DNA of 64,000 bases from an uncultured Solirubrobacteraceae bacterium. Its GTDB lineage: Bacteria; Actinomycetota; Thermoleophilia; Solirubrobacterales; Solirubrobacteraceae. A program made the position numbers and the translations under genes. The notes beneath the pieces are model-generated. The model had not been told where the DNA came from. It saw only the letters and a list, made by a program, of their open reading frames with translations, and did no database searches. The stretch spans positions 88,884 through 152,883 of the forward strand of contig CAVXBH010000014.1 of the NCBI GenBank assembly GCA_963759945.1. The letters are read 5' to 3'. This document shows, in pieces, positions 29,357 through 49,362 of the stretch (positions are counted from its first letter, which is position 1; every line of letters begins with the position of its first letter).

Positions 29357-30035
29357 GTCTGCGCGACACGATCGGCCGCCGCGCTGATGCCCCGGACCGA
29401 TCGTCGGCGCTGTCGACGGTGCGCGGGCCCGCGGCGGGTGGCGGCGGCGCTCGCGCGCGCTCGGCCGGAACGCCGCAGGTGCGGCTGTTCGTCGCCTTCG
29501 ACGATCCCGCCAGCGCGGTCGCACTGCTCGGGCTGGTCGAAGGTTGGCGCGGCCGGCGCGTCGACCTGCTCGTGGAGCCGGTCGTCGCGCGCGGCATCCC
29601 GGGCGACCCGGCGGTCGAGGCCAAGCGCGCCTATGCGGTGGTCGACGCGCGCCGCCTCGCGCCGCGCGACGGGCTGGAGCTCGTGCGCGACGAGCCGGTC
29701 GACGCCGGCCGACACCGCGTTCCTGGCGGCGTGGGCCGCCGCGCTCGCCCGGCGACGCAGCGCACGACGTTCTGCGCGCGGCCGATGCGCCGCTCTGGTT
29801 CGAGTCCGACGGCCCGGTCGACCCGGCCGGCTTCGCTCGCGCTCTGGCACGCGCACCGGCAGCGAGCCGCCGACGCCGCGCCGACGACCTGCCCGGCGAG
29901 CGCGGCATGCGCCGGCGGCGCCTCTACGACACGCCGGTCGCCGTGCTTCGCGGGCCAGTGGTTCTTCGCCCACGAGCGCCTCGCCGCAGATCGAGCACGC
30001 GCTCGACGAGCTGGGGTGGACGGCAGCGCGCATGA
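29353..30035 (+). CDS. DsbA-like (2-hydroxychromene-2-carboxylate isomerase family) paralog, frame breaks
   Basis: GTG overlaps the upstream TGA. VRLFVAFDDPASAVAL...GQWFFAHERLAQIEHALDELGW. Confidence 0.45.
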
Positions 30036-30611
30036 CCGCGCAGCTGGACTTCTTCTTCTCCTTCCGCAGCCCGTACTCGTACCTGGCCGGGCCGCGCGCG
30101 TTCGCGCTGGCCGACCGCTACGACGTGGAGGTCGTCTTCCGCGGCGTCATCCCGATGGCCATGCGAGGCCAGTCGGTGCCGATGGCCAAGCGCCTGCACA
30201 CGCTGCGCGACGTCAAGCGCGAGTCCGACGCGCCTCGGCATGCCGTTCGGCCGGATCCACGACCCGATCGGCGACGGCGCGATGCGCTGCCTGCTGGTCG
30301 TCCGAGCACGCCGCGGACGCCGGCCGCGTGCGGGAGTTCGTGCTCGAGGCCAGCCGCGGCATCTGGGCGGAGGCGATCGACGTCGCCGCGCGACGAGCGG
30401 TCTGCGCGCCGTCTGCGAGCGCGCCGGCCTCGACTGGGCGACCTGCCGCAGCGGCGCTCGAGGATCCGGCGATCCGCGCAGCGCGTCGACGCCAACACCG
30501 CACGCGCTCGCCGAGCACGGCCACTGGGGCGTGCCCGTGTTCGTCCTCGACGGCGAGCTGTACTGGGGCCAGGACCGGATCGAGGACGTCGAGCGCGCAC
30601 TGACTCACTAG
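30032..30611 (+). CDS. DsbA-like 2-hydroxychromene-2-carboxylate isomerase family protein, frame breaks
   Basis: MTAQLDFFFSFRSPYSYLAG and C-terminal HGHWGVPVFVLDGELYWGQDRIEDVE. Confidence 0.65.
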
Positions 30612-30633
30612 CGCAGCCCGCCGCCCCACAACT

Positions 30634-31362
30634 TCAACCAGGGGCCCGTCCCTTTTTTGAAGCGCTTCGCAGCTCCCGCTGTTTGGTCAGACGCCCGTAC
30701 ACGGCGCGACCCGTGATGTCGAGGACCGCAGCGAGCGTTGGCACCGGGATCGAATAGTCGTCGACGGCCTCGGCGATCCATCGATCCGCGTCGACTATGC
30801 GCAACTCCTCGATCAGCTCGTGATCGTCCAGCGCGACGAGACTGCGGTAGCGCGCGGTGGCTTCGCTGCCACCGAGCAATTCTTGTACCGCATCCACGGC
30901 CAGGAATTCCGGAGCCGGCGACAGTCCGGCCAGAGCCGGATGCGCGCTCCAACGCCAATCAATCGGGTGGGCGCAAAGTCCCGCGGCCACAGGGTTGCGA
31001 GCGATGTACCGCAGCACGGCCAGGAGGTGCGCATCCGATCTCACCAGCGTGTACGACGGACCGTTGCTGAACAGCGTGCCGTGCTCGCCCCACTTGCGGT
31101 TGAACTCCACCGCGTACTGCTCATGGACCGGCTTGAGACCGTCACCGAGATCGAGGTCCGGCCCTTGAAGCAGCTGGTGCCCGTGGGTGCCGAGCAGGCA
31201 ATAGCTGTACAGGACCCATCGACGCCGCCTCATCTCCATCGCGAGCAGCTCGAGGTACCGGTCGCGGTCGGCATCGTCGCGAAACAGCTGGCGTAGGGCC
31301 GGCGCTCGGAACGTCACGTGGTAGATGGCGTCGGGGTCTGGGACCTGCCTTCTGCGCGGCAT
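30634..31362 (-). CDS. IS200-like Y1 (HUH) transposase of the REP-associated (RAYT) type with C-terminal HTH; intact
   Basis: HUH THGHQLL, catalytic Tyr context LAVLRYIARNPVAAGL, 242 aa with no frame break. Its last codons lie in a flanking hairpin. Confidence 0.8.
   Translation of the reverse strand: MPRRRQVPDPDAIYHVTFRAPALRQLFRDDADRDRYLELLAMEMRRRRWVLYSYCLLGTHGHQLLQGPDLDLGDGLKPVHEQYAVEFNRKWGEHGTLFSNGPSYTLVRSDAHLLAVLRYIARNPVAAGLCAHPIDWRWSAHPALAGLSPAPEFLAVDAVQELLGGSEATARYRSLVALDDHELIEELRIVDADRWIAEAVDDYSIPVPTLAAVLDITGRAVYGRLTKQRELRSASKKGRAPG
30639..30656. repeat. REP-like hairpin arm (GGGGCCCGTCCCTTTTTT), inverted copy of 31421-31439
   Basis: The reverse complement contains the exact 15-mer AAAAGGGACGGGCCC found at 31421-31435. 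Confidence 0.5.
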
Positions 31363-31420
31363 GGGCAGATGAAAACCTCCGCGAGGAGGAGACAGGACCT
31401 TTTGCGCACTTCTGCTTCAG

Positions 31421-31439
31421 AAAAGGGACGGGCCCTTTT
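31421..31439. repeat. REP-like hairpin AAAAGGG-ACGGG-CCCTTTT
   Basis: Self-complementary 7-bp stem. Flanks the other side of the Y1 transposase gene. Related GGACCTTTTG lies at 31396-31405 and AAGGGACGGG again at 31464-31473. Confidence 0.5.
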
Positions 31440-31469
31440 GTGAAGCGGTGCGATGTGTACTGGAAGGGA

Positions 31470-31513
31470 CGGGAGCGACGGGACTCGAACCCGCGACCTC
31501 CGGCGTGACAGGG
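31470..31513 (-). pseudogene. tRNA-Asp(GTC) 3' fragment: anticodon loop to discriminator, no convincing 5' half (att-like remnant)
   Basis: Minus strand reads CCCTGTCAC-GCCGG-AGGTC-GCGGG-TTCGAGT-CCCGT-CGCTCCC-G. That is an Asp anticodon loop, variable loop, T arm, acceptor 3' strand and G73. The upstream 30 nt do not fold as D arm or anticodon stem. Confidence 0.6.
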
Positions 31514-31529
31514 TGACCAAGCGTGCCCA

Positions 31530-31800
31530 CTAAGGCCTCCCAAAGACGCTACCGAGCCAAGGATTCGAGCCGCATGGATCACGAAGGACCTGGCGATCAA
31601 CCCCGCATGTTGCCGCAGGGTTGCCACGGAGCGGCCACCAACCACGACATGAAGAACTGGACCGGACACGGAGTGCCCGACGCGCGCGATGAACTCGCGG
31701 CGGTTGACTGAGCGCAGCCCCAGGCCTACCGCGCTCTCGAGCTCCTCGGTTACGCTCGGCCCGCATCCACCAGCCCACGGGGTCGTTGCGCGCGTCTTCT
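31530..31800 (-). pseudogene. decayed 3' end of a tyrosine recombinase (integrase) gene abutting the tRNA fragment
   Basis: Minus-strand text VATLRQHAGLIARSFVIHAARILGSVASLGGLSGH resembles the integrase C-terminus (..ATLLLQAG......LGHSSVATTL.TYSH). No intact ORF. Confidence 0.45.
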
Positions 31801-32275
31801 ATCCACGGGATGTCAGCTGTCGCAACAAACCGGCGCCTGCGCTCGAGCCAACCGTACTCCTGAAGTGGGCGTCGTGGCGGTCACGCCGTCCAGCTCCAAT
31901 GGGGGTTGGATCCGCAACAGCGCTGCCGCCAGGAGGGTCGAGTGGCGCCCCGGACGCGACGGGAACTCGCTCGAGCCCTTCTAAGCGCTGTTCAGCAGCG
32001 CAGGGGGCAGAGCAGCTCCAAAACGACGAAGGCCCGGCGGATGCCGGGCCTTCGACCGAGTCAACGATCCATAGGAACGATGCCTCAGTGGTTGCGGGCC
32101 TCAGTAAAGCGCGTCACGGGTCCGGCCGCAGAGATTTTGTACATCGTGAGATCCCCCTTGTCCACGTGGCCAAGGTGCATTCTGCAACTTAGTCCAGATG
32201 AACAAACGATCAGTCGGCGCGCCACCGCACACTCGTGAGGCACCGTAATCGACACCAGAAAGGAGTCGTGATCGC

Positions 32276-32374
32276 GTGGGCGATGCCTCAGTGGTTGCTC
32301 TGGCGCTTGCCCTCGTTGTCGCGCTACTGCTGATCGGTCTGCTGATCGTCATGCAGTTCATGCGCCGGCGCTGA
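32276..32374 (+). CDS. possible 32-aa hydrophobic peptide (VGDASVVALALALVVALLLIGLLIVMQFMRRR)
   Basis: AAAGGAG lies 10 nt upstream of a GTG. Single TM helix plus basic tail. Below the ORF-track length cutoff. Confidence 0.25.
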   Translation: MGDASVVALALALVVALLLIGLLIVMQFMRRR

Positions 32375-32822
32375 GGAAACCCGGGAACGGCCCGTCTCTC
32401 GCTCAGGGAGGCGGGTCACCCGCTCCTTCCGACCGTCTGAGGCGCCGTCACTGACCTCCCTTGCTTCGTGAGATGGATCAGCCTGAGCCGAGTCTCGTCT
32501 GTTGCGCTTAGGAACCGAGGCGGGCTACGACCTAATCCCGAGGGGCAGGCGGTCTGCCGACCGGCCGAGCGGTGAAACGCGGCGCCCGTAGCCCGAGCTG
32601 GAAGGATGAAGCCGGAGATCGAAGCCGAACTACGACAGACAACTGGATGGAACTCCAACGCCTCTACAGAAGTTGCGAACCGGACCAGGGCCGGACAGTC
32701 TCCCGCGCCTACCAAGCACCCAGCTACCGAGGAGGAGCTGACCCGAACCCCGGGGGCCGCGCGACTCCACGGGCGGATCCTTGCAGATAACAAGCGCGCC
32801 GTGCTTAGCTGAGGCGGTGGGC

Positions 32823-33296
32823 GTGAACCTGAGTGCCATCTGTCTAAACGCACACGGCGTGAAGCTGGCATTGGCAGCGGACCGGGGCGAGCTCAGTGCA
32901 GACCGGGACATTCTTTTTGAGCTCGAGCAGAGCTACGAGAGTTGGTGGGGCGAAGACAAATCGTTCGACGCGATGCACTGGGCACTGACCGGGCGTTCCA
33001 GCTCGGAGCCCGATTGGCGACTCTTCGGCGCCGAGTCGATGCGTGGACAGGGAATTGGCGAGTGGACCGCTCTCCTCGAGCCAAGCCAGGTCATCACCCT
33101 CGAGGCGCAGCTTCGAGAGGTCCGGGAGGACGCGATGTACGAACGCCTGTCATGCATCCCGGCCGGCACCTACGGCGGGGACTACTACTCCGACGCTGCA
33201 GAGCACGCCGCGGTCGTAGCAGACGCGCAACGCTTCGTGAAACTCTTGAAGAATTGCGCCGCCGACGGTGGCTGGCTGCTTCTATCCGTCGGTTGA
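32823..33296 (+). CDS. YfbM/DUF1877-like protein (tentative), convergent with the immunity candidate
   Basis: GTG 32823. DAMHWALTGRSS...ends GGWLLLSVG, recalling the YfbM family from memory. Its 3' end overlaps 33282..33848 by 15 nt. Confidence 0.5.
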   Translation: MNLSAICLNAHGVKLALAADRGELSADRDILFELEQSYESWWGEDKSFDAMHWALTGRSSSEPDWRLFGAESMRGQGIGEWTALLEPSQVITLEAQLREVREDAMYERLSCIPAGTYGGDYYSDAAEHAAVVADAQRFVKLLKNCAADGGWLLLSVG

Positions 33297-33848
33297 CAGC
33301 AGCCGCGCCGCAACCCGATGCTGAAGCTGAACGACAGCGTGCAGCCGGTCGGCCTTGAGCGTCCCCTCGCCTCCTATGGCGATCGCGGATGCTACGGACG
33401 TGACGCACACCCACAACGGACTCCAATATGTGGATCCCAAGCGAAGCGCCGGCCAGTTCAGTTCGGAGTGAGGTCGTCTCTCTGGATCGATACCCCACTG
33501 GAAGCGGGGATCGACACGCATCGCTTCCTCGGCTACCGCGAACGTCAGACCGTCTTGAAAGCTTGCCTTCAGTAGACGGTCCCGGTCCCCCGGCTCGCAC
33601 CACAGCGGATGCCGAGGTTTTACATCGCGCCTTCCGAAATTCCACCGTTTAGCGCTGCGTCGGGAGGAGCCCCGGACGCCGAGCCGTCTGAGCACTTCGG
33701 GCCATAAGGCCGTAAGCGGCTGCTCAGCGCTTCGCCACGTCGTGCCTACCGCTTCATCGAGCCACGAGATTGCAGTTGAGCGTGACGCGACGTAGCCCTC
33801 GAGGAACTCCTGTGCCTCGGACTCAGACATAGATGCGAAGTCGATCAA
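33282..33848 (-). CDS. candidate immunity protein for the adjacent nuclease toxin
   Basis: Starts (TTG 33848 or ATG 33830) within 25 nt of the toxin stop at 33852-33854, on the same strand. 188 aa, no signal peptide, no family recognised. Confidence 0.55.
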   Translation of the reverse strand: MIDFASMSESEAQEFLEGYVASRSTAISWLDEAVGTTWRSAEQPLTALWPEVLRRLGVRGSSRRSAKRWNFGRRDVKPRHPLWCEPGDRDRLLKASFQDGLTFAVAEEAMRVDPRFQWGIDPERRPHSELNWPALRLGSTYWSPLWVCVTSVASAIAIGGEGTLKADRLHAVVQLQHRVAARLLSTDG

Positions 33849-33851
33849 CGG

Positions 33852-36800
33852 CTAGGGAAAATAGACGTGGTAGGGGATGCTGAGCTCGGTGAGCAGCCTC
33901 TGAACATCGGCGCAAGGAGCCAGTCGCATTCTCGCGGTGCCTGCGGGACCGGGAACCGTATTCGCAGTGAAGTGATATTCGACCTGCGGGGATTTGTTTT
34001 TCTCGAAGAGATAGTGATCGCGCACGATCTCCGCGCGGGTAGCGGCGCCGCAGCCTCTGCCGTTCTTGATCTCGTGGACTGCGATGGCATCTCCGTTGCC
34101 GTCCCTAACGACCACGTCGGGCCGGCGGTTCGCTACCGGCTGCGGAACGCGGCTACCCGTGGGGCCGGTGGCGATGTCCAGCGCTCTGTACCGATCGGCT
34201 AGCTCGAGCCGATCTGCGTCATTCAGTCGATAGATCATCTGCTCGCTTCCGCCCAAGGCGGTTGCGAAGGTGTTCTGGGCGTCGCTTGCGCTGGTGAACT
34301 CTCGCACTGGCGTGCCGTCCGGCATCACACGACCGACCGATACTGCGTTGTCGAGGAAGTCGGCGAAGCGGACCATGTCTCCCGTGTCGCCGACGCGAAG
34401 TAGCGCCACAACATCGTCGGTGATCCCGTCGTGTCGGGCGAGTCGCTGGAGGGCTTCGGGCGGCACGCCCTCGACCTGTTCGAGGACGGCGCGGGCCGAG
34501 CCTGACGGGAACCATCGCGAGTTGAGCACCGCTCGAACCGCCGCACGCGATTTCTCAGGCACCCGCCGCACGAAGCGAACGACCTTCGCAATAGAGGCGG
34601 GGACGTCGCCAAACACAGGCACAAGTCCGGCAAGGGACAGTCCCGCACTCACGATGTCGCCGTGAGCAAGACCGACGAAGAAGGCGCCGACGTCGCTGAC
34701 GCCGATCACTCCCCCGGCAAGATCGCCCATGAGAAAGGCGATCGTGTCGCCTTGCCCGATGAGACCGCCGGTGAGGCCCTGGGAGAATTCGCGGAGGTAT
34801 GTGAGCCGCCCGATCTGCTCGTCAGGTACGAGGGGATCGAAGCCGAGATCCAGCTTGCGGTCCTCCTCGAGGTCGGTCAGTCCGTCGGCGTCGGTGTCCG
34901 CCAGCCGAGGATCCGTACCGAGCGTCTCTTCGTAGACGTCGTTAGCGCCATCACCGTCGATGTCATTCGAGCGGGGACTGCTGCCGCGGTCGTACTCGTC
35001 GAGGTCGTCGAGGTTGTCGGCGTCCGAGTCGATTGCCATCGGGTCTGAGACGACGTTGAAGATGGGCTTCGTTCCGACCTGCACGGCGAGGTTTGTGCCG
35101 AACTGCTCGACGTCGGTTGTGTTGAGCCGGTGGCCGAGTTCTTCGCCGTCGAGCAGACCGTCGCCGTCGGTGTCGTCGGTGTGCGGGTCCGAGAAGAACA
35201 GTCGCCCGGTGGCGGCGTCGAGTGCTCCGTCGCTTTCGTCGCAATCGCCGACGCCGTCGTCGTCGAAGTCGCCGTTGACCTCGTAGCGGGTGACGCGGGA
35301 TGCGACGAGCGGAACGTCGGCGGTCGTTCGGACTTGATGGAAGCGCCCGCCGGTGCGTTGTGCGATCTCTCGCAGCTTCGCCTCTCGTACTGAGTCGCCG
35401 ATCGCGATGGGAAAGATCGCGACGTTGCCGAGGTTCGACTGCGCGACTGCGGCGTCGATCTGACTGTCGAAGTTGCCCCAGCCCGCGGTCAGCAAGATCA
35501 TGGCTCGCGCGCGGTTCTCCTCGCGGGGAGCTGCTCGAAGGACCGAGTTGCCGCCGTGGATGACCTGGCCAAGATCGGCTGGCCGGTTGTAGAACTCGAG
35601 TTGCTGCAGGCCTGGCTCTAGCCGGGAGTGGTCCGCGGTGAGGGCGGTGATGATGCGGGTGCTGTCATCCGTTTCTGAGATGCCCGCTCGGTCTTGAGTG
35701 TCGAGTGCGCCGAAGAATGCCCTTGCCACGGCTTTGCGCAGCGTGAAGCCAGGGTCGTTGTCCATGGTCTGGACGCCGACGTCGATCGCGACGGCGAGAT
35801 CGAGCGTCGGCGGGTTGCCCTGGCAGCCGGGGACGGTGGTGGTCCAGCGCTGCTTCCAGGTGACGATGTTGAACAGCGTGTAAACGGAGAAGTGATCGAC
35901 CGTTGCGGTGACGGTGCCGGCCAGTTCGTCGACTTCCTGTGACGTCGACGACGGCATCCATGCGCCGTGCACGTCGTCCCAGGTGAACACGCGAAGGTTC
36001 GCGCGTTCCTCAAGGGGAACGCTGCTTGGGATCGGCAGCGACACATTTGCGCTTTCGAACGTGGCGTCATCCAGTTTCTGTTCGTCGAGGTGTATGTCCC
36101 ACGAAGGAGCGACTTGAGCGAGCTCGGCCGCGGCGAGAGGGCCACCGGTTCCCAGGCTTGTGACCTGCAGTGCGCCGGCGACATCGCCTCGGCCGCTGAT
36201 CGCGACCGTGACGCCGTCGGTGAACTCTCGAGTCGTCGTTGTGATCTCATCGCCGTCCGAGACACCGTCCGCGTCGCTGTCTTCGACTAGCGGGTTGGTG
36301 CTCCCGTCGGCTTCGCTTGCATCGCGAAGGCCGTCGCCGTCCGTGTCTGAAGCGCGCGGGTTCGTTCCGATCTGGCGTTCGCGTGCGTCGACCAGGCCGT
36401 CCGAGTCGGTGTCCTTTGACATCGGGTCCGATCCGAATTGCTCCTCCTGCTCGGCTGTAAGGGAGTCGCCGTCGGCGTCTTCGAGGCCGTCCACGGTGCC
36501 GTCAGCGTCTGAGTCGGCCTGATCAGGGAGGGCTGCCGGGTAGCCGAACCGAATTTCGAAGCCGTCCGTCAGCCCGTCGCCGTCTTCGTCCTGGGCCGAG
36601 CCTCCGTCGAGGGAGTAGTCGAACTCGGCGACGTCAGCGACCTCGTCGTCGTCGGTGTCGAGCGTGGCCAAGTCGAACGGCAGCTCAAGATCATCAGTGA
36701 GACCAACGATGCGGGTCTTCGTGAGGGACTGGGCGCTCGCTTTGGCTCCGGCTGGAAGGGTCGCGGGGTTGACTTCGACGACGTACTCGCCGGGGATCAG

Positions 36801-39047
36801 GTCGGTCCGGTAGCGACCGTCGGCGTCGGTCGAGGTAGTCACCAGGGCCAGCGGCACGGCCACGCCCGCGATCACCGGCTTGAAGCCGACTTCGACGGCG
36901 CTAGCCGGTGCCCCTCGATCGAGGCCGAGAGAGGCCTTCGCTTCGAAGCTGACTCGACCCTTCACGCGTGCGAGGCGTTGGCTGGCGAGGATCGAGCGGG
37001 TCGTGGAGGTCGTGCTGACGTACCCGTCGGTAACGACGATTCGGTACGCCACGTCTGAGCGCCCGACGTCTTCCTTCGGGATCACAACGCTGAACTGCTC
37101 GAGGCCGGTCGCGGAGCGGACCTCCGGCGGCGCGGCGCTGAGGTCGAGCGGCACCTCTTGCATCGGAACGGAGGTCCACGTTCCGTCGCCAGTTGTGTAG
37201 CTGAGTTCCGCGTTGCAGCTGCCGGCACCGCAAACCACGAACGTGTCGACGGGAACGTCCTCTCCGAGCTTCAATGCCGACCTTGGGTCGATCGGCAACA
37301 CCTCTGGTGCCGATCGAACGTCCGTCATCCAGGCCAAATCGATTCCGGTATCAACTGCGGGCTGCGGCTGCGGCGATCCACCTGGCAGGGAGGTATCTGG
37401 GCGCAGGTTCAGCTGGATCGGCGACGAGGTGATAGCGCCGGGTCGCTCGTCTCCGATCGGGAGCGGACCGCCGAGGTAGGGGGTCCCGGGGGAGAAGGTG
37501 CTCAGATGGCCGTCGCTGCCGCGGATGAACCAAGAGAGACCGGCCGTCGTGACGTCGTCAGGCGGGACGAACGCCTCGTAGACGGTGACCCGGCCCAGCA
37601 GGTCAATCGAGGGACGCTGCGCAATCGGCTGCATTGGAACGCGCTGATAGCTGCCGCTTCGGGCGGGCGCGCCAGGCGCATAGAACAGATCGGCGCTGCA
37701 CTGTTGGGTGACGCAGCTGACGGTCGCCCGTACTCGATACGGCAAGGAAGGCGCTGTGCTCGGCGACGCCTGCGGCAGGATGTGCGGCGGCTCGAGGACG
37801 CGGATATGCCCGTACCCGACCCGGGTGCCGTCGATCGACACGTACCCATCCACGCTCGAGGTTCCGGGCCACCATGCGGTTCGTGAGCCGTCGGTGACGG
37901 AAAAGAAGTAGTCGACGCCTCGCGTGGTCGCGGCGCTAGCCGGGATCGTGCCGCGCGCTTCGATAGCGTCGAGAGGCCCCACCAGCCGCCGGGATACGGT
38001 CATCGGGACACTGGCAAACGTGGAGTCCGGATCGAGGAGGAGTCCGTTGCCGACCCGGTAGTAGAGCCTTGCCGTGCACGTCCGGCTCGGCGCGCAAGTC
38101 GCCGTGCCGCTGATGTCGATTGGTCGCTGGTAGAGGGCGGCGGCAGTCGGGGTGTGAACGATCCGGGGCGCCTCAACCACGTGGACGTGGTGCCACAAGG
38201 TCTCGACTCGCTCGAAGAGCTCGTCGTCGTAGAGCCTGCCCGGGCCGGGCGACCAGCTGATTGCGTTGCCGTCGGTGAGGCGAATCGCGTAGTCGACTCC
38301 GCGAGTGTCGACCGCCGACGCTGGAATCGTCGCTGCGAAGCCCTTGTTGCCAAGACCAAGCGCGGAGCTGGCGACGGAGAGCGGGGCCGCGGTCATCCCG
38401 ACGTTCGCCCAAAACTTGGGGCCGCCCTGGCCCCGAATGGTCTCCTCGAGGGCCGTCTCCCGCGTGGGGCTGTAAAAGAGCCGGGCCTGGCAATCGGGGT
38501 TCTCGCAACGAGCGTCGAAGTCGATCCGAAGCGGCTTGTCAGCAACGGCAAACGGCGGCGGAGCATGGACCAGCCCGGGGTCCTGCAAGACCCGGACGAC
38601 GTGAGGTGATTGCGTCGGGTTCTGGGCCGGATCGCTAACGGCGGTCGCGCCGTCAAGCGTTTCGATGTAGTACTCGAACGTCTCCCCGACGACGAACTCC
38701 GCGGGGATATCGCCGGCAAGGCTGGTGACTCCGGCTAGCTCCGACGCTCTAGCAAGTGAGAACGCACGCCATGGCATGCCGGGGGCTCGGCGTACGACCA
38801 CTCGAGCCGAACAAGACTCCTGGCACCTCATCGAGACGGAAACCGGAACGTCCTGTCCGTATCTAGCAACCGCCACGGGTGCGTGCACCGCGCTGCCCTG
38901 GGCTAGGGCGGTATCAGACGTCCACAGCCCCACCCCAACAACCGTGACGAGCCAAGTGGAAAGCCAGCGCGCGAGCCGACCATGATTGATGCCGAGCATG
39001 AAGGCCCTATCGGGGAGTTCACATATGTCCTCCAGCCCAATAGACAT
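33852..39047 (-). CDS. 1731-aa secreted polymorphic toxin: 5 novel Cys-pair repeats, CnaB-like domain, TSP3 repeats, vWA, TSP3 repeats, Gly-rich pre-toxin segment, PD-ExK nuclease-like tip
   Basis: Intact ORF. Signal MLGINHGRLARWLSTWLVTVVGVGLWTSDTALA (internal Met 17). Many DxDxDGxxDxxE repeats, vWA text AMILLTAGWG...IAQRTGGRF, and C-terminal RRPDVVV...AVHEIKNG. Confidence 0.85.
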   Translation of the reverse strand: MSIGLEDICELPDRAFMLGINHGRLARWLSTWLVTVVGVGLWTSDTALAQGSAVHAPVAVARYGQDVPVSVSMRCQESCSARVVVRRAPGMPWRAFSLARASELAGVTSLAGDIPAEFVVGETFEYYIETLDGATAVSDPAQNPTQSPHVVRVLQDPGLVHAPPPFAVADKPLRIDFDARCENPDCQARLFYSPTRETALEETIRGQGGPKFWANVGMTAAPLSVASSALGLGNKGFAATIPASAVDTRGVDYAIRLTDGNAISWSPGPGRLYDDELFERVETLWHHVHVVEAPRIVHTPTAAALYQRPIDISGTATCAPSRTCTARLYYRVGNGLLLDPDSTFASVPMTVSRRLVGPLDAIEARGTIPASAATTRGVDYFFSVTDGSRTAWWPGTSSVDGYVSIDGTRVGYGHIRVLEPPHILPQASPSTAPSLPYRVRATVSCVTQQCSADLFYAPGAPARSGSYQRVPMQPIAQRPSIDLLGRVTVYEAFVPPDDVTTAGLSWFIRGSDGHLSTFSPGTPYLGGPLPIGDERPGAITSSPIQLNLRPDTSLPGGSPQPQPAVDTGIDLAWMTDVRSAPEVLPIDPRSALKLGEDVPVDTFVVCGAGSCNAELSYTTGDGTWTSVPMQEVPLDLSAAPPEVRSATGLEQFSVVIPKEDVGRSDVAYRIVVTDGYVSTTSTTRSILASQRLARVKGRVSFEAKASLGLDRGAPASAVEVGFKPVIAGVAVPLALVTTSTDADGRYRTDLIPGEYVVEVNPATLPAGAKASAQSLTKTRIVGLTDDLELPFDLATLDTDDDEVADVAEFDYSLDGGSAQDEDGDGLTDGFEIRFGYPAALPDQADSDADGTVDGLEDADGDSLTAEQEEQFGSDPMSKDTDSDGLVDARERQIGTNPRASDTDGDGLRDASEADGSTNPLVEDSDADGVSDGDEITTTTREFTDGVTVAISGRGDVAGALQVTSLGTGGPLAAAELAQVAPSWDIHLDEQKLDDATFESANVSLPIPSSVPLEERANLRVFTWDDVHGAWMPSSTSQEVDELAGTVTATVDHFSVYTLFNIVTWKQRWTTTVPGCQGNPPTLDLAVAIDVGVQTMDNDPGFTLRKAVARAFFGALDTQDRAGISETDDSTRIITALTADHSRLEPGLQQLEFYNRPADLGQVIHGGNSVLRAAPREENRARAMILLTAGWGNFDSQIDAAVAQSNLGNVAIFPIAIGDSVREAKLREIAQRTGGRFHQVRTTADVPLVASRVTRYEVNGDFDDDGVGDCDESDGALDAATGRLFFSDPHTDDTDGDGLLDGEELGHRLNTTDVEQFGTNLAVQVGTKPIFNVVSDPMAIDSDADNLDDLDEYDRGSSPRSNDIDGDGANDVYEETLGTDPRLADTDADGLTDLEEDRKLDLGFDPLVPDEQIGRLTYLREFSQGLTGGLIGQGDTIAFLMGDLAGGVIGVSDVGAFFVGLAHGDIVSAGLSLAGLVPVFGDVPASIAKVVRFVRRVPEKSRAAVRAVLNSRWFPSGSARAVLEQVEGVPPEALQRLARHDGITDDVVALLRVGDTGDMVRFADFLDNAVSVGRVMPDGTPVREFTSASDAQNTFATALGGSEQMIYRLNDADRLELADRYRALDIATGPTGSRVPQPVANRRPDVVVRDGNGDAIAVHEIKNGRGCGAATRAEIVRDHYLFEKNKSPQVEYHFTANTVPGPAGTARMRLAPCADVQRLLTELSIPYHVYFP

Positions 39048-39112
39048 TCGTTCGAAGCAACATTGCTCAGGAAGAGGTCAAGTCGCCGGACGAAGCGGTC
39101 GATTCGGAATGC

Positions 39113-39676
39113 GTGATGTGCCTGTTCCGGATCGTCTCATTGCTCCTCACGGTTGGATGGGTCACGGCCTGCGGGGCTTCGTCAACAGAGCCCGACTCGC
39201 TGCGCCCGACAGCCGCAGCGCATGACGACGGCCGCCCCGCGACGGGTCCGACAGACCAACGGGTTGAGACGGGCCGGACTCATGCAATGCCCGGACGTTT
39301 CCGAACATTCATCGACGCTGCCGGGGATTCTCGCGTCGCAGCGCGCGATCTCATTTCGGCCTCAGTGGGCAGCCGAGGCAATGACGCGGTCGCCGTGATA
39401 TCCGCGACACGCTGGGTTCCGGGGGAGACGGTCCGACTGCGGCTTGAATCGCGATCGGCGGACGCGCGCCTTAAGTCGAGCGATGCTTGGACTGTGTCGG
39501 CCGCCGCCGACACCGCTCGGACGAACACCGCCGATGAGCTGATCATCGAAATGAAGGGCACCCGTCCTGAATCCGTCCTCTCCGTTCAGCTGATCGAGAA
39601 CGGTCGGGCGGTCGACGAACTCCAGCTCGATGGCACCGAGCCTGCCGGCGACGCTGCAGCTGGCGCGAGCTGGTGA
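39113..39676 (+). CDS. lipoprotein, hypothetical
   Basis: MMCLFRIVSLLLTVGWVTAC lipobox-like signal. Divergent from the toxin gene. Confidence 0.6.
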   Translation: MMCLFRIVSLLLTVGWVTACGASSTEPDSLRPTAAAHDDGRPATGPTDQRVETGRTHAMPGRFRTFIDAAGDSRVAARDLISASVGSRGNDAVAVISATRWVPGETVRLRLESRSADARLKSSDAWTVSAAADTARTNTADELIIEMKGTRPESVLSVQLIENGRAVDELQLDGTEPAGDAAAGASW

Positions 39677-39769
39677 TCATCGTCCCTCGCTAGCCCGGGC
39701 TTCCACTTAGTCGACCCACCCAGAAGAATTCAGCCGCACAGGAAGGCCGGACGCTTCCTGCCAGTGTCG

Positions 39770-40260
39770 ATTCAGACCTTCAAAGGCCGCTGCAGAGCCA
39801 AAGAGCTAACCCGCGCGGATCGCAAAGGTCCTGTCAAACCACCCGGCATGTTGCCGCAGTGTTGCCACCTGCCGCTGCCTTGCGGACCCCGGCACGACGG
39901 AGACGTGGACCGAGTGGGGCCGCACCACAATCGAAATCGAAGGGTCGCGAGGCGCCTCCTTCGACGGTCCGTAAACCGCAAGGCTACGACAGACGAACGG
40001 ACCGAACAGCGGGCCGGACACCCTCTCCAGGCGGCTGCGGTCGCCCACGCCGAGATCCTCCACGAGACTGGGATCGATCCGGCCACGGTCGTCGAACACG
40101 CGTTCAGCGACCTGCTCTCGATCTGCGCGCTCCCTCACGGCGCGGCGCGGGTCAAGCACGACTCGTCTTCCCAAGCTCGTGATGCCCGGCGATCACCCGT
40201 CGCTTGTTGAGCTCGCTAAGTCCAGCGGCGCCGTCGGCATCCGCCTGCGCCAAGCCACGA
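39770..40260 (-). pseudogene. second decayed tyrosine recombinase C-terminal region (stops and frame breaks)
   Basis: Minus-strand text ...GKTSRA* / RRVVLDPRRAV...VATLRQHAGWFDRTFAIRAG* / LFGSAAAFEGLNRH. Shares about 100 nt with 31540-31640, including the exact GCATGTTGCCGCAG. Confidence 0.45.
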
Positions 40261-40445
40261 GACGACTCGCTCTCGCGTCCCTGAGCATGAGGTCAGGCTG
40301 CCACCGCTTCTGAGCTCACAGTGGGGGCATAACCGCTCGCCGCTGGATTGTCACCTTCCACGGGGCTCTCACCAACCCAGGCGCGGCTCAAACCGCCTCT
40401 GGGTGCCAGGCCGGCCCGCGACATACGTCGCAGGCCGGAACTGGG

Positions 40446-40652
40446 CTATTCGCCTGGCCGCGAAAGCGGGCCGATGTCTCCCGCCTCATACATCAGCGCC
40501 GTCGCGGTTTCTGCCGGGCTGGCCTCGAGCACGACAATGTCAGACTCCCTCGGCCGGTCAGCTCCACCGGCTGACTTCGCTGCGACGGCGGCTAACGCAG
40601 CCAAGATGCCGAGCGCGAGGACCAGGTGACGTCTGCGAGTGAGGGCTTGCAT
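40446..40652 (-). CDS. small secreted hypothetical protein
   Basis: MQALTRRRHLVLALGILAALAAVAA signal; 68 aa. Confidence 0.4.
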   Translation of the reverse strand: MQALTRRRHLVLALGILAALAAVAAKSAGGADRPRESDIVVLEASPAETATALMYEAGDIGPLSRPGE

Positions 40653-40860
40653 CCCGTTAGCTCACCGTAGAACTCGTGTTCTTGCAACTGAGTGTGCGCG
40701 AGCCCTGGCCGGTGCAGTCCCAGCCGCCACCCAGCTTGCCGAATCCCCAGAACTTGTTCGGGCTGTTCGTAGTCAGGGACACAAAGCCGCGCGCATAGTG
40801 TGGAGTTCCCCCGTTTCGCCGGACAGGGTTGAGCTTTCGGGGTCATCTTCTCTCTGATCT

Positions 40861-41772
40861 TCATTTGGTGGGGGTGCCGGCGAAGCCGGCAAGATCAGAA
40901 GGTGAGTCTGTGAGAGTGCCGTTCTCGTAGTCGATGGGCGAGAGCATCCCGAGCGTGGAGTGTCGGCGCCGCGGGTTGTAGAACGCTTCGACGTAGTCGA
41001 AGATTTCCGACGTCAGCTCGCGCCGAGTCGGCCAGGACTGGCGGTGGACGAGCTCCTTCTTGAGCGTCGCGAAGAAGCTCTCGGCGACGGCGTTGTCGTA
41101 GCAGTCGCCCTTGGATCCCATCGATTGGGCGATGCCGGCGTCGCGGCAGGCCTGGCCGAAGCCCAGCGCCACGAACTGACTGCCCTGGTCGCTGTGGAAG
41201 ACCAGCCCGGGCTGGGGCCGGCGTCGCTGGACGGCCATGTTGAGCGCGTCGACGACGAGCTCTGCGCGCATGTGATCGGCCATCGACCAGCCGACGATCC
41301 GACGCGAGTAGGCGTCCTGGACGGCGGCGAGGTAGAGCCAGCCTTGCCAGGTCCTGAGGTAGGTGATGTCAGCGATCCAAAGCACGTTCGGCGCAGCCGG
41401 TCGGAAGCGCCGCTCGACGAGATCGTCGGCGACGCGGACGCCGGGCACCCGGATCGTCGTGCGGCCGCGCTTCTTGGCGACCAGGCCGGAGATGCCGGCC
41501 TGGCGCATCAATCGCTCGACGCGCTTGCGACCGACGTTGATGCCTTCGGCGAGACGCAGTTCGGCGTGGATCCTGGGCGCGCCGTAGACCTTGCGATTGG
41601 TCGCCCAGATCTCCTTGATCTTCTCGAGCAGCCAGGCGTCGGTGAGCGCGCGATCAGACGGGACGCGGCCAGACCATTCGTAATAGCCCGAGCGGCTGAC
41701 GCCGAGCAGGTTGCAACACATCGAGACCGGGGTGCGGGCCTTCTCCGCCGAGATGAACCGGTAGACGCTCAC
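40861..41772 (-). CDS. IS3-family transposase OrfB (DDE integrase core)
   Basis: WIADITYLRT, HSDQGSQF and the CYDNAVAESFF..LK motif. GTG overlaps the orfA TGA (GTGA). Confidence 0.9.
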   Translation of the reverse strand: MSVYRFISAEKARTPVSMCCNLLGVSRSGYYEWSGRVPSDRALTDAWLLEKIKEIWATNRKVYGAPRIHAELRLAEGINVGRKRVERLMRQAGISGLVAKKRGRTTIRVPGVRVADDLVERRFRPAAPNVLWIADITYLRTWQGWLYLAAVQDAYSRRIVGWSMADHMRAELVVDALNMAVQRRRPQPGLVFHSDQGSQFVALGFGQACRDAGIAQSMGSKGDCYDNAVAESFFATLKKELVHRQSWPTRRELTSEIFDYVEAFYNPRRRHSTLGMLSPIDYENGTLTDSPSDLAGFAGTPTK

Positions 41773-42074
41773 CGGATCTCGGTCTCTGCTGCGAAGAAGG
41801 CCGCGGCTCGCTTGAGCAGATCACGCTCCTGCCTCAAGCGTGCATTCTCGCGCCTCAACTGACGCAGCTCCTCGAGCTCGCTGGTGGTCGGGCCGTCGTC
41901 TCGCTCATGGCGGTCACGCTGGTCCTGGCGGCGCCAGTTGCGGAGCGTCTGCTCCGAGCAACCGAGCGCGTCAGCCAGCTCTCGCGGCGACCGTCCCGCG
42001 CGCAACATCTGCACCGCCTCCCGGCGGAACTCATCCGGATACGCAGGTCTCGTCTTGGGCATGGCGGACACCAT
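41769..42074 (-). CDS. IS3-family transposase OrfA (HTH plus leucine zipper)
   Basis: PDEFRREAVQMLRAGRSPRELADALGCSEQTLRNW and ELRQLRRENARLRQERDLLKRAAAFF. Confidence 0.9.
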   Translation of the reverse strand: MVSAMPKTRPAYPDEFRREAVQMLRAGRSPRELADALGCSEQTLRNWRRQDQRDRHERDDGPTTSELEELRQLRRENARLRQERDLLKRAAAFFAAETEIR

Positions 42075-42139
42075 CCTTTCGCGGCTCGCGCTCGCAAGCC
42101 ATCAGGTGTCCGGAAAAGCGGGGGAACTCCAGGTGGGCT

Positions 42140-42382
42140 ATGGCGTGCAGCATCTCGCTCCTCATTTGTGGGGTCCTCGGACTCGGCCTTCTTGAAGCGG
42201 TGGCAACCGTCGAACCGGCCGATTCGGCGTGGAAGGATGTCTTCTCCGCGGTTGACGTGCTGGTGACCGGGCTCGCTGTGGGCGCGGGAACCAAGCCCCT
42301 CCACGATCTGATCTCGCGTATCGAGAAGTCCAAGAACAACGCGGATCCGGCCACAGCGGCCGCGACCACGCCCGTCGGATAG
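42140..42382 (+). CDS. small membrane protein, hypothetical
   Basis: MACSISLLICGVLGLGLL TM helix, high third-position GC. Begins 8 nt outside the IS end. Confidence 0.4.
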   Translation: MACSISLLICGVLGLGLLEAVATVEPADSAWKDVFSAVDVLVTGLAVGAGTKPLHDLISRIEKSKNNADPATAAATTPVG

Positions 42383-42556
42383 CCGCCGGAGCGTCGCGGC
42401 ACGCGGAAACCCTCCGAGACCCGTCCGTGTTGCCGCCGGCAATCCCGTTACGGCTTCGGCTCCGCCGCCAGCGACTGGTTCGCCCTGAGGCCTGCCTGCT
42501 GGTATTTGGCCGGATCCGGCGTCACCAAATCGGAGATGCCGGTATAAGCGCGATGC

Positions 42557-43108
42557 GTGCCCGACGAGGTCGTTTGGCATGATGTGGCGGTGCCTCCCCC
42601 TCGCAAAGCAGCAGCTGACCAAGGACTGTCCCTCGAGCGAGCGTTCGGCGCCTTCGAGGCGGACGTCCGGGCCTCACTGGAGCAGGAGGCGCGGCGATCG
42701 GTCGACGAAGCGCTGCAACGAATCTCTCACTCCGGCGGGCCCTACCGCATCACCTCGTTTGAGTTCGACATCGTGATCCGCGATGTGAACGTGTCCCTCA
42801 GCACGACGCAGGGCTCTCAGGCGGAGCACACCGCGGCGCCCCGGCGACGCGCAAAGCGCAAACCGGCGGCTCGTCCCGCCGGCGCTACCGGGCGGCCTCC
42901 AGGGCCTGTTCGCACCGCGCTTACCGAGATCTTCGCTTCAGCGGACTCCGAACTCACCACGGACGACATTCGCGAGCAGCTTGACCAGCGGGGCGTCGAG
43001 ACCACGAGCGACAACCTCAATCAACAGCTGCGGCGGCTCAGCGCGAGCGGCACGCTCGAGCGGGTGGGACGTGGCTCCTATCGCCGGTCAGCTCAGTCCA
43101 CGACTTAG
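42557..43108 (+). CDS. hypothetical protein with C-terminal winged-helix-like segment
   Basis: LTTDDIREQLDQRGVETTSDNLNQQLRRLSASGTLERVGRGSYRR. Confidence 0.45.
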   Translation: MPDEVVWHDVAVPPPRKAAADQGLSLERAFGAFEADVRASLEQEARRSVDEALQRISHSGGPYRITSFEFDIVIRDVNVSLSTTQGSQAEHTAAPRRRAKRKPAARPAGATGRPPGPVRTALTEIFASADSELTTDDIREQLDQRGVETTSDNLNQQLRRLSASGTLERVGRGSYRRSAQSTT

Positions 43109-43182
43109 CTCCGCGACGAAGACCGAAATCGCTGTCGCTGGACAACCCGTTCGTCTTCACGAATCGTGGTCGCGTCAGCGAC

Positions 43183-43785
43183 TCAACCAAGCTGCCCATG
43201 AGAAGGACACGCCTGACGCGGTCGGAGCCTGCCCGTCCGCGGCGACGCGGCCACGAGCCGCAACTGCCCGATCGCAAGTCGTCGTACGAACTCCTGCCCC
43301 TGCGCCAGCGTCGCATCCAGATCCACAGGATCGACCCCACTGACCGAAGCGCGCAGGAAGCTGTCCTCGCTCCTGATCCTCACGCACACGAGCTCGCGGC
43401 CCTCTGCATGCTCAACCAGCGACACCAGCTCAGACACGGTCACCGTCAGGCGGCCCCCGGATCGGTCGCTGTAGACGCCGACGAGTTCCGTGCTTGTGCG
43501 ATCTAGCGTCATCCGCACCTTCCAGTCCCGCTCCTGGAGCGACTGGCCGGCAACGGGACGTAGATCGCGAAGCTCCATGTAGCTAAGAGCCACAACTCGC
43601 GAACTTGTGACGAGCGCAATGAGATCCGCGCATGAGCGGGCCGTCCCAGCGGGATGCAACACCCGAAGACCAGACGGCCGGCGGCGCTCAGAACGGGGCG
43701 ACTGACTCAGCCGGAAAGTTCGGCCTATCGCATCGCCGCGCGTCATCTCCAATGCGTTCAGCCGGGTCCGGGCTTGGGCGAGCAC
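43183..43785 (-). CDS. hypothetical protein (start uncertain)
   Basis: ORF only; convergent with 42557..43108. Confidence 0.3.
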   Translation of the reverse strand: MLAQARTRLNALEMTRGDAIGRTFRLSQSPRSERRRPSGLRVLHPAGTARSCADLIALVTSSRVVALSYMELRDLRPVAGQSLQERDWKVRMTLDRTSTELVGVYSDRSGGRLTVTVSELVSLVEHAEGRELVCVRIRSEDSFLRASVSGVDPVDLDATLAQGQEFVRRLAIGQLRLVAASPRTGRLRPRQACPSHGQLG

Positions 43786-43822
43786 ACGGAGCGCGCCGCC
43801 GCGTCAGGTGCCCGTCGGTGCC

Positions 43823-44338
43823 TCATCGGCTCGGTGTCCACCCTCGGCGCTGGGCGTATCGCACCTCCCTTCGATGACTCGCGAAACACTCGGCGAGCTC
43901 AGCCGGAACCATCGGACCGCTTCCCCGAAGGTGCGGCCAGTAGGCCATGGCGTCCAAGACCTTCCGACCCAGACGGAGCCGACGGTGCTGCGCGACCGCG
44001 CGCGACCATTGACAGCGGGCATTCGCTTCCAGCACCGGCCCGATGTGGGCCACCGGGACTTCTCCCGCTTCCTCCCACCGAATGCCGTTGAAATTCCCGC
44101 CAGACGGAAGCGGCAGGTGAAGCTGGAGCCGCTCGGTGAGTTGTCGCGCTTGTCTCGCACTCAGCACGGCCGGGCCCCAGGAACTCGGCACGTAGTTCCC
44201 CCGAGCTTTCGCCAGCGCCATGACACCCGGCCGCCCCGGACCAGCGGCTGACGCCGGTGGTTGGGACGGCCCAAGCCCCAAGGCGCCGGTGATGCCGAGC
44301 GCCACCAGGGCGCTCGGCATCACCAGGCGGCGGGTCAT
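43823..44338 (-). CDS. secreted hypothetical protein
   Basis: MTRRLVMPSALVALGITGALGLG signal. The ATG overlaps the upstream stop. Confidence 0.45.
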   Translation of the reverse strand: MTRRLVMPSALVALGITGALGLGPSQPPASAAGPGRPGVMALAKARGNYVPSSWGPAVLSARQARQLTERLQLHLPLPSGGNFNGIRWEEAGEVPVAHIGPVLEANARCQWSRAVAQHRRLRLGRKVLDAMAYWPHLRGSGPMVPAELAECFASHRREVRYAQRRGWTPSR

Positions 44339-44727
44339 CGCCGCAGTCGACCGTCGTGCGGATCCGTCGTGCCGTCCAGCGTCTTGCCTCGCAGCACGAA
44401 GCAATCTGTCGGCAACCCTCCTCCGAAAAGCTGGTGGAAGGTCGTGTCGCCGCCGCTGATCGTCGTGCTACCGCGCTGGGAGTAGTCGCTGCAACGGTTG
44501 GCAGACAGCACCGTGGTCTTCGTCAGGTTGGTGACCCAACGGAAGTCCGCTGACCCGTCGCCGTCGGAACTGATGTGGTAGTTCGTCCCGCCGCCGTAGG
44601 TCTTCCAGCTCTCATTGAGCGACCAGTTCGTAACGTCGGAGGTAAAGAACGCTTGCGCGGTCGGAGCGCCGATGCAGGTAGCGGCCAGCGCGACGCTGAC
44701 GGCTACGCGCCACAGGCGTCGATTCAT
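44335..44727 (-). CDS. small secreted hypothetical protein
   Basis: MNRRLWRVAVSVALAATCIGAPTAQA signal; beta-rich, 2 Cys. Confidence 0.5.
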   Translation of the reverse strand: MNRRLWRVAVSVALAATCIGAPTAQAFFTSDVTNWSLNESWKTYGGGTNYHISSDGDGSADFRWVTNLTKTTVLSANRCSDYSQRGSTTISGGDTTFHQLFGGGLPTDCFVLRGKTLDGTTDPHDGRLRR

Positions 44728-44875
44728 GATGGTTCCTCTCGTAGATGTCGGGAACCGGGCGCGCGCTCGGTGACCCTGAGAGCCACAAGTCGCTCGCCGT
44801 GTGACGAGCCGGTCTGCCTAACTGACCAAATCGACGCTCTGCTGGCGCGTCGAGGCTCTAGCCTCGCGGGGGCTG

Positions 44876-46152: not shown

Positions 46153-46377
46153 CCGATCGCCCGCTGCGTAGCGGTTACGCGGTCTATCTCCCCGCCCATC
46201 CGCGGCCACCTGAAGACAGGACAATCGACGCGCTTAGCAGCCAGCGCGCGGAAGCCCTTATGTAACTGTCCTGACACATCGAACCGATTCGCGACAGAAT
46301 CCGGCCGCTCTGACCGTTGCGTTCCCAGAATAATCCGAGGCAACACAGGCTTCGGCGGCAACGAACGGAGAATCGAA

Positions 46378-47775: not shown

Positions 47776-47951
47776 CCGATACGGCGCGCCTTCGCCCAAG
47801 CGGAGGCGCGCCGAAGGCGGTCGACCCGTAGGACTTGAGTTTGTGCGGTCGCGTCGTCCCCGACGCACGGGTTGCGGATCCGCCGCAACCATCTGACGAC
47901 CGAATTGTTTTAGCGAACGAACACGCATGCTCCATATGAAGGGAACTTCAG

Positions 47952-49327: not shown

Positions 49328-49362
49328 TTCCCAACTGGTTGCACGCAGCCCGTGCATTACCG
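49328..49362 (+). promoter_or_regulatory. repeated 5' element TTCCCAACTG-N8-CAGCCCGTGCATTACCG, copy 1; ends 3 nt before an ATG
   Basis: The same two blocks with the same spacing occur at 61844-61878. In both copies an ATG follows after exactly 3 nt. Confidence 0.4.

Follow-up and report, generated by a model that had tools for sequence, protein, structure and literature searches.

A predicted polymorphic toxin on a TSP3-VWA stalk and its candidate immunity gene in a low-GC island of an uncultured Solirubrobacteraceae bacterium

The DNA analysed here (the window) is a stretch of 64,000 nucleotides from an uncultured Solirubrobacteraceae bacterium (assembly GCA_963759945.1, contig CAVXBH010000014.1, positions 88,884 to 152,883 of the forward strand). 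Its reverse strand carries a 5.2-kb open reading frame (ORF) for a protein of 1731 amino acid residues (aa), followed at once by a small ORF (Table 1). We consider it quite likely, judging from sequence, that the two form a polymorphic toxin-immunity module located in a low-GC island which looks like a mobile element. A first-pass annotation, made by a model from the letters alone, had already read the large ORF as an intact polymorphic toxin with a signal peptide, a repetitive surface stalk, a pre-toxin-like segment, a helical linker and a nuclease-like tip, had taken the downstream gene for its immunity partner and had described most of the neighbouring genes as decayed. The present analysis follows up these claims.

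Table 1. Features of the toxin gene, its downstream partner and the surrounding island (window coordinates).
Feature	Residues (aa)	Coordinates	Strand	Basis or remark
Whole toxin ORF, 1731 aa and stop codon	1-1731	33852..39047	-	uninterrupted, ATG start
Signal peptide	1-49 (17-49 if the start is M17)	38901..39047	-	sequence reading and hydropathy peak at aa 25-43
Five tandem repeats of ~125 aa, a C-x3-5-C pair in each	53-700	36948..38891	-	leave-one-out profiles; no Pfam match
Transthyretin/CnaB-like beta domain	~700-790	36678..36950	-	weak CarboxypepD_reg match
TSP3 block A, calcium-binding repeats, 5 exact DxDxDGxxDxxE motifs	797-935	36243..36659	-	motif count, Pfam
Domain between TSP3 block A and VWA, no family assigned	936-1075	35823..36242	-	conserved columns of the family alignment; sub-threshold Pfam match
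VWA domain, degenerate MIDAS	1080-1250	35298..35810	-	weak Pfam match, strong in relatives
TSP3 block B, 4 exact motifs	1260-1396	34860..35270	-	motif count
Pre-toxin module, glycine-rich hydrophobic helices	1402-1500	34548..34844	-	cluster matches, family alignment, hydropathy
Helical linker, conserved LxxxGxSDxxIxRL element	1501-1584	34296..34547	-	family alignments
Predicted toxic tip, PD-(D/E)xK-like	1585-1731	33855..34295	-	family alignments, AlphaFold, Foldseek
Predicted catalytic codons of the tip	D1644, E1659, K1661	34116-34118, 34071-34073, 34065-34067	-	alignment
Candidate immunity gene, 182 aa, ATG 21 nt past the toxin stop codon		33282..33830	-	independent gene call, homology, synteny
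ORF convergent with the immunity gene, 15-nt overlap		32781..33296	+	codon-position GC 0.66/0.48/0.74; sub-threshold DUF1877 match (E = 0.0013)
Weak IS200-like ORF		30634-31362		
IS3 transposase pair		40861-42074		apparently intact
AbiEi-like ORF		42557-43108		
ECF sigma factor		44876-45475		apparently intact
Two SSB genes		49339-50031, 50113-50688		apparently intact
Toprim protein		51015-52190		apparently intact

The predicted toxin gene and its stalk

The gene opens with ATG and runs through 5.2 kb with neither a stop codon nor a frameshift, so its intactness was read correctly in the first-pass annotation. G+C content by codon position is of the coding type over codons 1-1400 (34848..39047; 0.68/0.50/0.78) and keeps this pattern over the last 331 codons (33852..34847; 0.71/0.47/0.74).

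The exact start can be narrowed down. Since the first of five N-terminal repeats (see below) is homologous to repeats 2-5, the true start has to lie upstream of aa 53. The public gene call, 1641 aa long, begins at M91 inside repeat 1 and loses the signal peptide (38775..39047, minus strand); it is too short because it cuts a repeat homologous to the other four and drops the secretion signal. An exact look-up of the 1731-aa product had no match because public gene calls begin at M91. No clear Shine-Dalgarno sequence precedes M1, and a weak AGGG is located 8-11 nt upstream of M17; a scan for promoters and terminators near the toxin gene gave nothing above chance. Read from M17, the signal peptide consists of a basic n-region (R24, R27) and a 15-residue hydrophobic core WLSTWLVTVVGVGLW, and a signal peptidase I site is predicted after A47-L48-A49 and before Q50 (ALA/Q). 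This reading, together with the hydropathy peak, agrees with the signal peptide proposed earlier, and relatives of the toxin likewise begin with a signal peptide or a lipobox.

The mature protein starts with five tandem repeats to which no Pfam family could be matched. They were missed by self-BLAST of the N-terminal region and were revealed by an anchored alignment and leave-one-out profile hidden Markov models (HMMs), which gave the repeats 27-56 bits, whereas none of the shuffles (165-194 scored) exceeded 8.4 bits. The beta domain that follows contains GRYRTDLIPGEYVVEV, which lies in a stretch (aa 726-760) matched by the CarboxypepD_reg model only weakly and below its cut-off (E = 0.004); PEGA/CarboxypepD_reg domains are strong in relatives of the toxin. 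Nine exact DxDxDGxxDxxE motifs, five before and four after the VWA domain, make up two blocks of TSP3 repeats, and the Pfam TSP3_bac model scores 29.8 bits on the protein (cut-off 25). The VWA domain between them is below the Pfam threshold in the window protein (19.5 bits, cut-off 27) but strong in homologues, where the same aligned region reaches E-values as low as 1e-21. Five repeats, a CnaB-like element and two TSP3 blocks enclosing a VWA domain had all been named by the first-pass annotation, and all were recovered here, the CnaB-like element and the VWA domain at sub-threshold scores.

The metal ion-dependent adhesion site (MIDAS) of the VWA domain reads D-V-G-V-Q-T-M in the window protein (aa 1088-1094; 35766..35786, minus strand) instead of DxSxS. 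Many relatives have DSSGSM at this place, and the closest subgroup has D-E-T-x-S.

Pre-toxin module, tip and relatives of the scaffold

The segment earlier described as glycine-rich, hydrophobic and pre-toxin-like (aa 1420-1495) contains two of the three most hydrophobic 19-residue spans of the whole protein, with Kyte-Doolittle means of 1.77 for aa 1443-1461 and 1.53 for aa 1472-1490. An alignment of 28 members shows invariant G, D and PxxGD positions. Hydropathy and conservation ahead of varied tips bear the description out. The Pfam pre-toxin families PT-TG, PT-HINT and PT-VENN have no match at E <= 10 either to the window segment or to the 28 aligned segments; PT-TG had been among the families named for checking in the first-pass annotation. 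The helical linker can be assigned to the scaffold since it also precedes unrelated tips in relatives (e.g., P0036 and P0131). Judged by the varied predicted toxin domains that follow it, the whole of aa 1402-1584 is a true pre-toxin module.

Part of the linker, LQRLARHDGITDDVVALLRVGDTGDMVRFADFLD (aa ~1533-1565; 34353..34451, minus strand), finds a match in all 33-aa repeats of BurrH, a TALE-like protein (PDB 4cja, 4cj9). With the best single repeat reaching only 8.6 bits, the summed E-value of 3.6e-15 is not independent evidence.

The last domain carries RRPD at aa 1641-1644 and E1659-I-K1661, exactly as the first-pass annotation had it. The positions of D1644, E1659 and G1663 do not vary among 40 aligned tips. 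Conservation is 97% for R1641, K1661 and D1677 (the D of a "KD" pair), 92% for a glutamate in helix 1, and 90% or above for a W, an H and an F. The resulting family signature includes GxxGE in helix 1, RxxD, ExKxG, QIxKD, WHFF and a C-terminal IHxP. A structure prediction of the tip, proposed along with the first reading, was run with AlphaFold2 on family alignments and gave confident models, with pLDDT values of 89.4 (window tip and linker) and 94.0 (core of a canonical member). The modelled order is a helix, a strand starting from the D, a strand with ExK, a helix, a strand, a helix and a strand. In these models D and ExK sit on two adjacent strands after a helix that bears an acidic residue in most of the family, which is the arrangement of PD-(D/E)xK nucleases; the corresponding helix-1 residue of the window protein is Q1591.

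Relatives were collected by a HMMER search with aa 1401-1731 against 1.84 billion cluster representatives (50% identity). At E <= 1e-3 it returned 158 representatives, most of them aligned only to query residues 2 to ~150, i.e., to the hydrophobic segment and the linker; above 50% identity there was just the window protein itself. A tip profile built from a few full-length matches detected a window-type tip in 108 of the best 150 matches. A word-indexed protein search had no matches when the C-terminal 332 aa of the window protein or the 40-member tip alignment was used as a query; matches were obtained with a six-member tip alignment.

Throughout a 48-member full-length alignment the order TSP3, unassigned domain, VWA, TSP3, pre-toxin module, linker and tip is conserved. 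TSP3_bac was recognised in 44 of these proteins, VWA models matched 18 at most, and the N-terminal domains vary (fn3, PEGA, PKD, lectin). The first-pass annotation did not recognise this domain order from any described toxin family. It is indeed undescribed in the papers searched, but it is not unique to the window protein, being shared by a widespread uncurated family.

The tip is also replaced in this family. Many of the 42 tip-less proteins among the best 150 matches are truncated or frameshifted; several others are intact and have unrelated C-termini after the same pre-toxin module and linker. One ends in an AHH nuclease domain (PF14412; 50.5 bits, cut-off 22.3, E = 2e-13) and another in a Colicin_D tRNase domain (PF11429; 52.5 bits, cut-off 25, E = 6.5e-14); a weak CDI_toxin_EC869_like match was found in P0105. 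Judged by eye, further tails may carry deaminase-like and D...ExK-like motifs. It is by such an exchange of tips, here of predicted toxin domains, that polymorphic toxin scaffolds are defined.

The candidate immunity gene and other carriers of the tip

The downstream ORF spans 33282..33848. It probably starts at the ATG at 33830, as does a gene call in an independent assembly. We compared this arrangement with other tip loci found by scanning with the six-member alignment: two genome loci (Leifsonia poae and Salinibacterium) and five metagenome contigs. At five loci the gene following the tip encodes mutually homologous proteins of 340-390 aa where complete (the copy in L004 runs off the contig end), and at three loci a shorter protein follows. 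Toxin and downstream gene are conserved across the compared loci, and nothing else is.

One of the metagenome loci, L007, links these proteins to each other. Its downstream ORF matches that of the window in BLASTP (E = 1e-8 over ~160 aa), with a Smith-Waterman score of 105 against 31.9 +/- 5.4 for shuffled sequences (z = 13.6; none of 1000 shuffles reached it). The same L007 ORF matches a profile of the long forms from Leifsonia poae, Salinibacterium and three metagenome loci (E = 6e-8), the ORF after a toxin gene on a Vibrio nigripulchritudo plasmid (E = 1e-7) and the ORF after a tip protein gene of Bacillus pumilus (E = 1e-7). An immunity-family profile built without the window protein gives it a score of 0.5 bits. 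No Pfam immunity family (Imm49, SUKH/SMI1_KNR4, Imm54 and others) matches the window protein at E <= 1, and the best Pfam match among its relatives is DUF6278 at E = 0.1. Homologous ORFs placed directly after the same tip elsewhere support the earlier suggestion that the downstream gene is the putative immunity partner.

Two of the compared loci show peculiarities. In L006 (501..2546) the long immunity gene (~370 aa) is present in two tandem copies after one tip gene. In Leifsonia poae P4 (NZ_CP192580.1; L002 2693..6510) the toxin is split into overlapping ORFs, 2693-5596 and 5494-6510, owing to a frameshift, pseudogenisation or a sequencing error; the immunity gene that follows is intact.

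The Vibrio nigripulchritudo pair is located on plasmid pA (NC_015156.1; L010 3820..7702). WP_022609716.1, a lipoprotein of 1083 aa annotated as "VWA domain-containing protein", has TSP3, VWA, the pre-toxin module and the same tip (E = 3e-23 with the tip profile); it is followed by the 196-aa immunity homologue WP_013610274.1, annotated as "hypothetical protein". The pair thus resembles that of the window in having TSP3, VWA, pre-toxin module and tip on one protein and an immunity-family homologue next to it, and differs in the lipoprotein signal (LSAC), the lack of the five N-terminal repeats, the conjugative plasmid and the Gram-negative host. In Bacillus pumilus (CP126081.1; L011 3001..5584) the tip is joined to a signal peptide by an acidic, Gly/Pro-rich spacer in a protein of just 246 aa, whose gene precedes one for a 210-aa immunity homologue. 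Two further tip fragments were named filamentous hemagglutinin by JGI, a name which could not be confirmed on their short contigs. A tip that moves between carriers with its downstream partner looks like a toxin-immunity cassette. No other copy of the tip, the pre-toxin module or the immunity gene came up when the entire window was scanned with HMMs in six frames.

A SUKH/SMI1_KNR4 gene lies ~350 bp beyond the Bacillus pumilus immunity homologue, past a small oppositely oriented ORF, and a TIR-domain gene begins at the edge of that locus.

Interpretation, known systems and genomic setting

Polymorphic toxins were defined by Zhang, de Souza, Anantharaman, Iyer and Aravind (2012; PMC3482391), and the three features of that definition which can be tested in silico are present in the window system as far as sequence comparison goes: a predicted N-terminal secretion signal on the window protein, a predicted C-terminal toxin domain that varies on a shared scaffold, and a candidate partner gene downstream, the last in the window, in L002-L009, on the Vibrio plasmid and in Bacillus pumilus. 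With AHH and Colicin D domains on the same scaffold and homologous downstream genes, the polymorphic-toxin reading of the first-pass annotation gains support.

If this reading is correct, the 1731-aa protein would be exported through the Sec pathway, as its signal peptide implies, and would expose a long extracellular stalk of five cysteine-paired beta repeats, a transthyretin-like domain and TSP3 blocks flanking the VWA domain. From its domain types, the stalk probably binds the target cell. Membrane insertion, translocation or processing of the last domain is the most likely function of the pre-toxin module and linker. The last ~150 aa would then act in the target cytoplasm as a PD-(D/E)xK-type nuclease cutting DNA or RNA, the fold being likely and the activity predicted. 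The 182-aa protein would be the cognate immunity protein neutralising the tip in the producer, as conserved synteny and homology suggest.

Several observations weigh against this reading. Curated resources (Pfam, NCBIfam and PDB sequences) offer no profile match to the tip, the pre-toxin module or the immunity protein. E-values were 0.0076 or higher throughout three Foldseek searches with the tip (best PDB match 0.03, best match in a viral library 0.0076), with TM-scores of 0.40-0.48 for PDB matches and of 0.60 at most in the viral library. The downstream ORF has a weak codon-position GC pattern (0.65/0.53/0.68), and its product joins the immunity family through L007 alone. Moreover, the window tip, which also carries two private insertions, is off consensus in 8 of the 21 columns that are highly conserved in its family (E->Q1591 in helix 1, Q->E1673 in helix 2, W->Y1691 at a position with no other exception, F->T1694, S->N1696, G->A1710, H->Y1729 near the C-terminus and L->F1561), and given these divergent columns the window copy could be weakened.

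In spite of the missing matches, a PD-(D/E)xK fold is likely for the tip, on the strength of the invariant D...ExK, the predicted topology and the enrichment of nucleases among structural neighbours. Nine matches in the top 50 of the PDB search have a query TM-score of 0.40 or more, and eight of them are PD-(D/E)xK nucleases: EndoMS and OkrAI (two chains of each), Cdn1, AF1548, Can2 and the R2 restriction-like endonuclease. Named whole-domain matches in the viral library are mostly restriction endonuclease, endonuclease I, Cas4-like or RecB-like proteins. HMM searches of PDB sequences with the tip returned noise only, and hhalign comparison of the tip profile with other tails of the scaffold family that look like restriction endonucleases (REases) gave a probability of at most 1.5%. 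The nuclease-fold tip of the first-pass annotation therefore keeps its motif, its predicted topology and the nuclease enrichment, but has gained neither profile support nor a significant Foldseek match.

This leaves some room, in our view a rather small share of the probability, for a toxin-immunity pair whose tip is not a DNase, being either an RNA-targeting (e.g., tRNA-cleaving) PD-(D/E)xK enzyme or an alpha/beta fold with a coincidental D...ExK. Some PD-(D/E)xK CdiA C-terminal toxins are tRNases, e.g., that of Burkholderia pseudomallei 1026b. The fold and substrate of the tip are fixed by no significant sequence or structure match, and Rossmann-like alpha/beta proteins are among the top Foldseek matches; against this, the D, E, K and upstream helix glutamate are the most conserved tip positions and occupy the expected PD-(D/E)xK active site in the models, and among the named structural neighbours it is PD-(D/E)xK nucleases that align over the greatest length.

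The divergence of the window copy raises another alternative, which we hold to be improbable: an attenuated or dead tip, a relic on a mobile island, with the stalk perhaps still serving as an adhesin and the immunity gene drifting. Besides the off-consensus columns, it is favoured by the lowest score of the window tip among the seven seed members of the first tip profile, by the loss of the MIDAS motif, by an immunity ORF with a weak coding signal and a match to one relative only, and by the lack of any other protein more than 50% identical among the 1.84 billion representatives. Yet the 5.2-kb ORF has neither stop nor frameshift and its tip keeps the codon-position GC pattern of the gene; R1641, D1644, E1659, K1661, G1663, D1677, H1692 and F1693 are all retained. 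A few other family members also have Q in place of the helix-1 E, and a few have E in place of the Q; moreover, GxxxQ is found at the corresponding site of Tox-REase-8, one of the REase toxin families already described (PMC3482391). We keep an active toxin as the preferred interpretation because the predicted catalytic residues D, E and K are preserved in an uninterrupted reading frame.

The combination of TSP3 arrays and VWA on a secreted or surface protein is also found in Myxococcus CglD (NF033765), described in NCBIfam as a gliding-motility lipoprotein, and MtsD (NF047639), described as a cell-cell cohesion protein. Scores of the window protein with these models are 40.8 (cut-off 400) and 16.8 (cut-off 800); the matches cover only the repeats, leaving the pre-toxin module, linker and tip unmatched. 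It is highly improbable that the window protein is a CglD- or MtsD-like adhesin or motility protein with the hydrophobic segment as an anchor and a non-toxic last domain (signalling, housekeeping): these two models are its best NCBIfam matches, though far sub-threshold, two hydrophobic stretches lie near its C-terminus and 3 of the 28 pre-toxin segments have weak matches to the membrane protein family DUF4112, but the similarity is confined to the TSP3 repeats, AHH and Colicin D toxin domains follow the same pre-toxin module and linker in relatives, a homologous small gene follows the tip across several phyla and different carriers, and the 246-aa secreted protein of Bacillus bears the tip while lacking both a stalk and a hydrophobic segment.

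Returning to the toxin-immunity module, its general plan is that of the Sec/type II secretion system polymorphic toxins of Zhang et al. (2012), with a signal, a repeat or adhesion region, a pre-toxin, a variable toxin and a downstream immunity gene. It differs from them in its carrier, which is none of those named there (RHS, filamentous haemagglutinin, ALF, LXG, MafB-N, PrsW or others). TSP3 and VWA are absent from that survey (PMC3482391) as well as from the domain list of a 2022 toxin-discovery preprint (10.1101/2021.10.19.465003), and full-text literature searches found no paper describing the TSP3-VWA-TSP3-pre-toxin architecture as a toxin.

The tip invites comparison with the REase toxin families Tox-REase-1 to -10 tabulated in PMC3482391. 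The descriptors given there for Tox-REase-1 (E, D, ExK, Q), -6 (E, D, ExK, Q, Y) and -7 (GxxxE, IxD, ExK, Q) show the same motif order as the window tip family: GxxGE in helix 1, RxxD, ExK and a Q in the next helix. However, the tip has no significant score against Pfam Tox-REase-2, -3, -5, -7 and -9, Tox-REase-1 and -6 having been compared by description only. Pfam Tox-REase models matched none of the 48 full-length members at E <= 0.01, and the best result among the 40 tips was one at E = 0.2 (Tox-REase-7). The tip family has additional signatures (KVG, QIxKD, WHFF and the C-terminal IHxP), and none of the immunity partners reported for Tox-REase toxins (Imm49, Imm-PA2201, Imm23, Imm54, HEAT) was detected in any downstream protein. 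CdiA-CT toxins and PD-(D/E)xK effectors of the type VI secretion system (EC869-like PF21111; VRR-Nuc TseV, PMC9635880) likewise combine a C-terminal toxin with an adjacent immunity gene. They use type V or type VI secretion systems, whereas the window toxin has a Sec signal and a TSP3-VWA stalk, and no sequence relationship between its tip and these effectors is detectable.

The kind of system is therefore known, the carrier is undescribed, and the pre-toxin, tip and immunity families are uncurated. We speculate, as a tentative possibility, that the TSP3-VWA-TSP3 stalk with its pre-toxin module is an unrecognised Sec-only delivery platform, in which the pre-toxin module is an autonomous translocation device and the tip and antidote are a new nuclease-toxin pair that is also borne by filamentous-haemagglutinin-type and small Bacillus carriers. 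Such a platform would be common to single-membrane (Microbacteriaceae) and double-membrane (Vibrio plasmid) bacteria and would need no dedicated secretion system.

Polymorphic toxins are among the main means by which bacteria compete, and surveys of them anchor on known carrier, pre-toxin and toxin domains. The present family has no such anchors, and the public records that name its members say "VWA domain-containing protein" or "hypothetical protein". Recognition of the scaffold, pre-toxin module, tip and immunity family would make four uncurated families annotatable at once and would add a Sec-only carrier. It would also provide a small testable toxin-antidote pair present in both Actinobacteria and Firmicutes as well as on a plasmid from a Vibrio pathogenic to shrimp. 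The general view of how polymorphic toxin systems work would stay unchanged.

The two genes lie within a low-GC island (~30000..56000) with 62-68% G+C against 70-75% in the flanks. An insertion sequence (IS) of the IS3 type is represented by its transposase pair, and the island also encodes an extracytoplasmic function (ECF) sigma factor, two single-stranded DNA-binding (SSB) proteins and a Toprim protein. As all of these genes look intact, the earlier statement that most neighbours are decayed was not confirmed. The island resembles an integrative, conjugative or plasmid-derived element in its predicted gene content. Rfam and tRNA scans of the window found no RNA genes. The stretch 31400-32780 has no clear coding signal. 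The adjoining ORF 32781..33296 has a good one and is likewise among the gene calls of the Logan contig L001.

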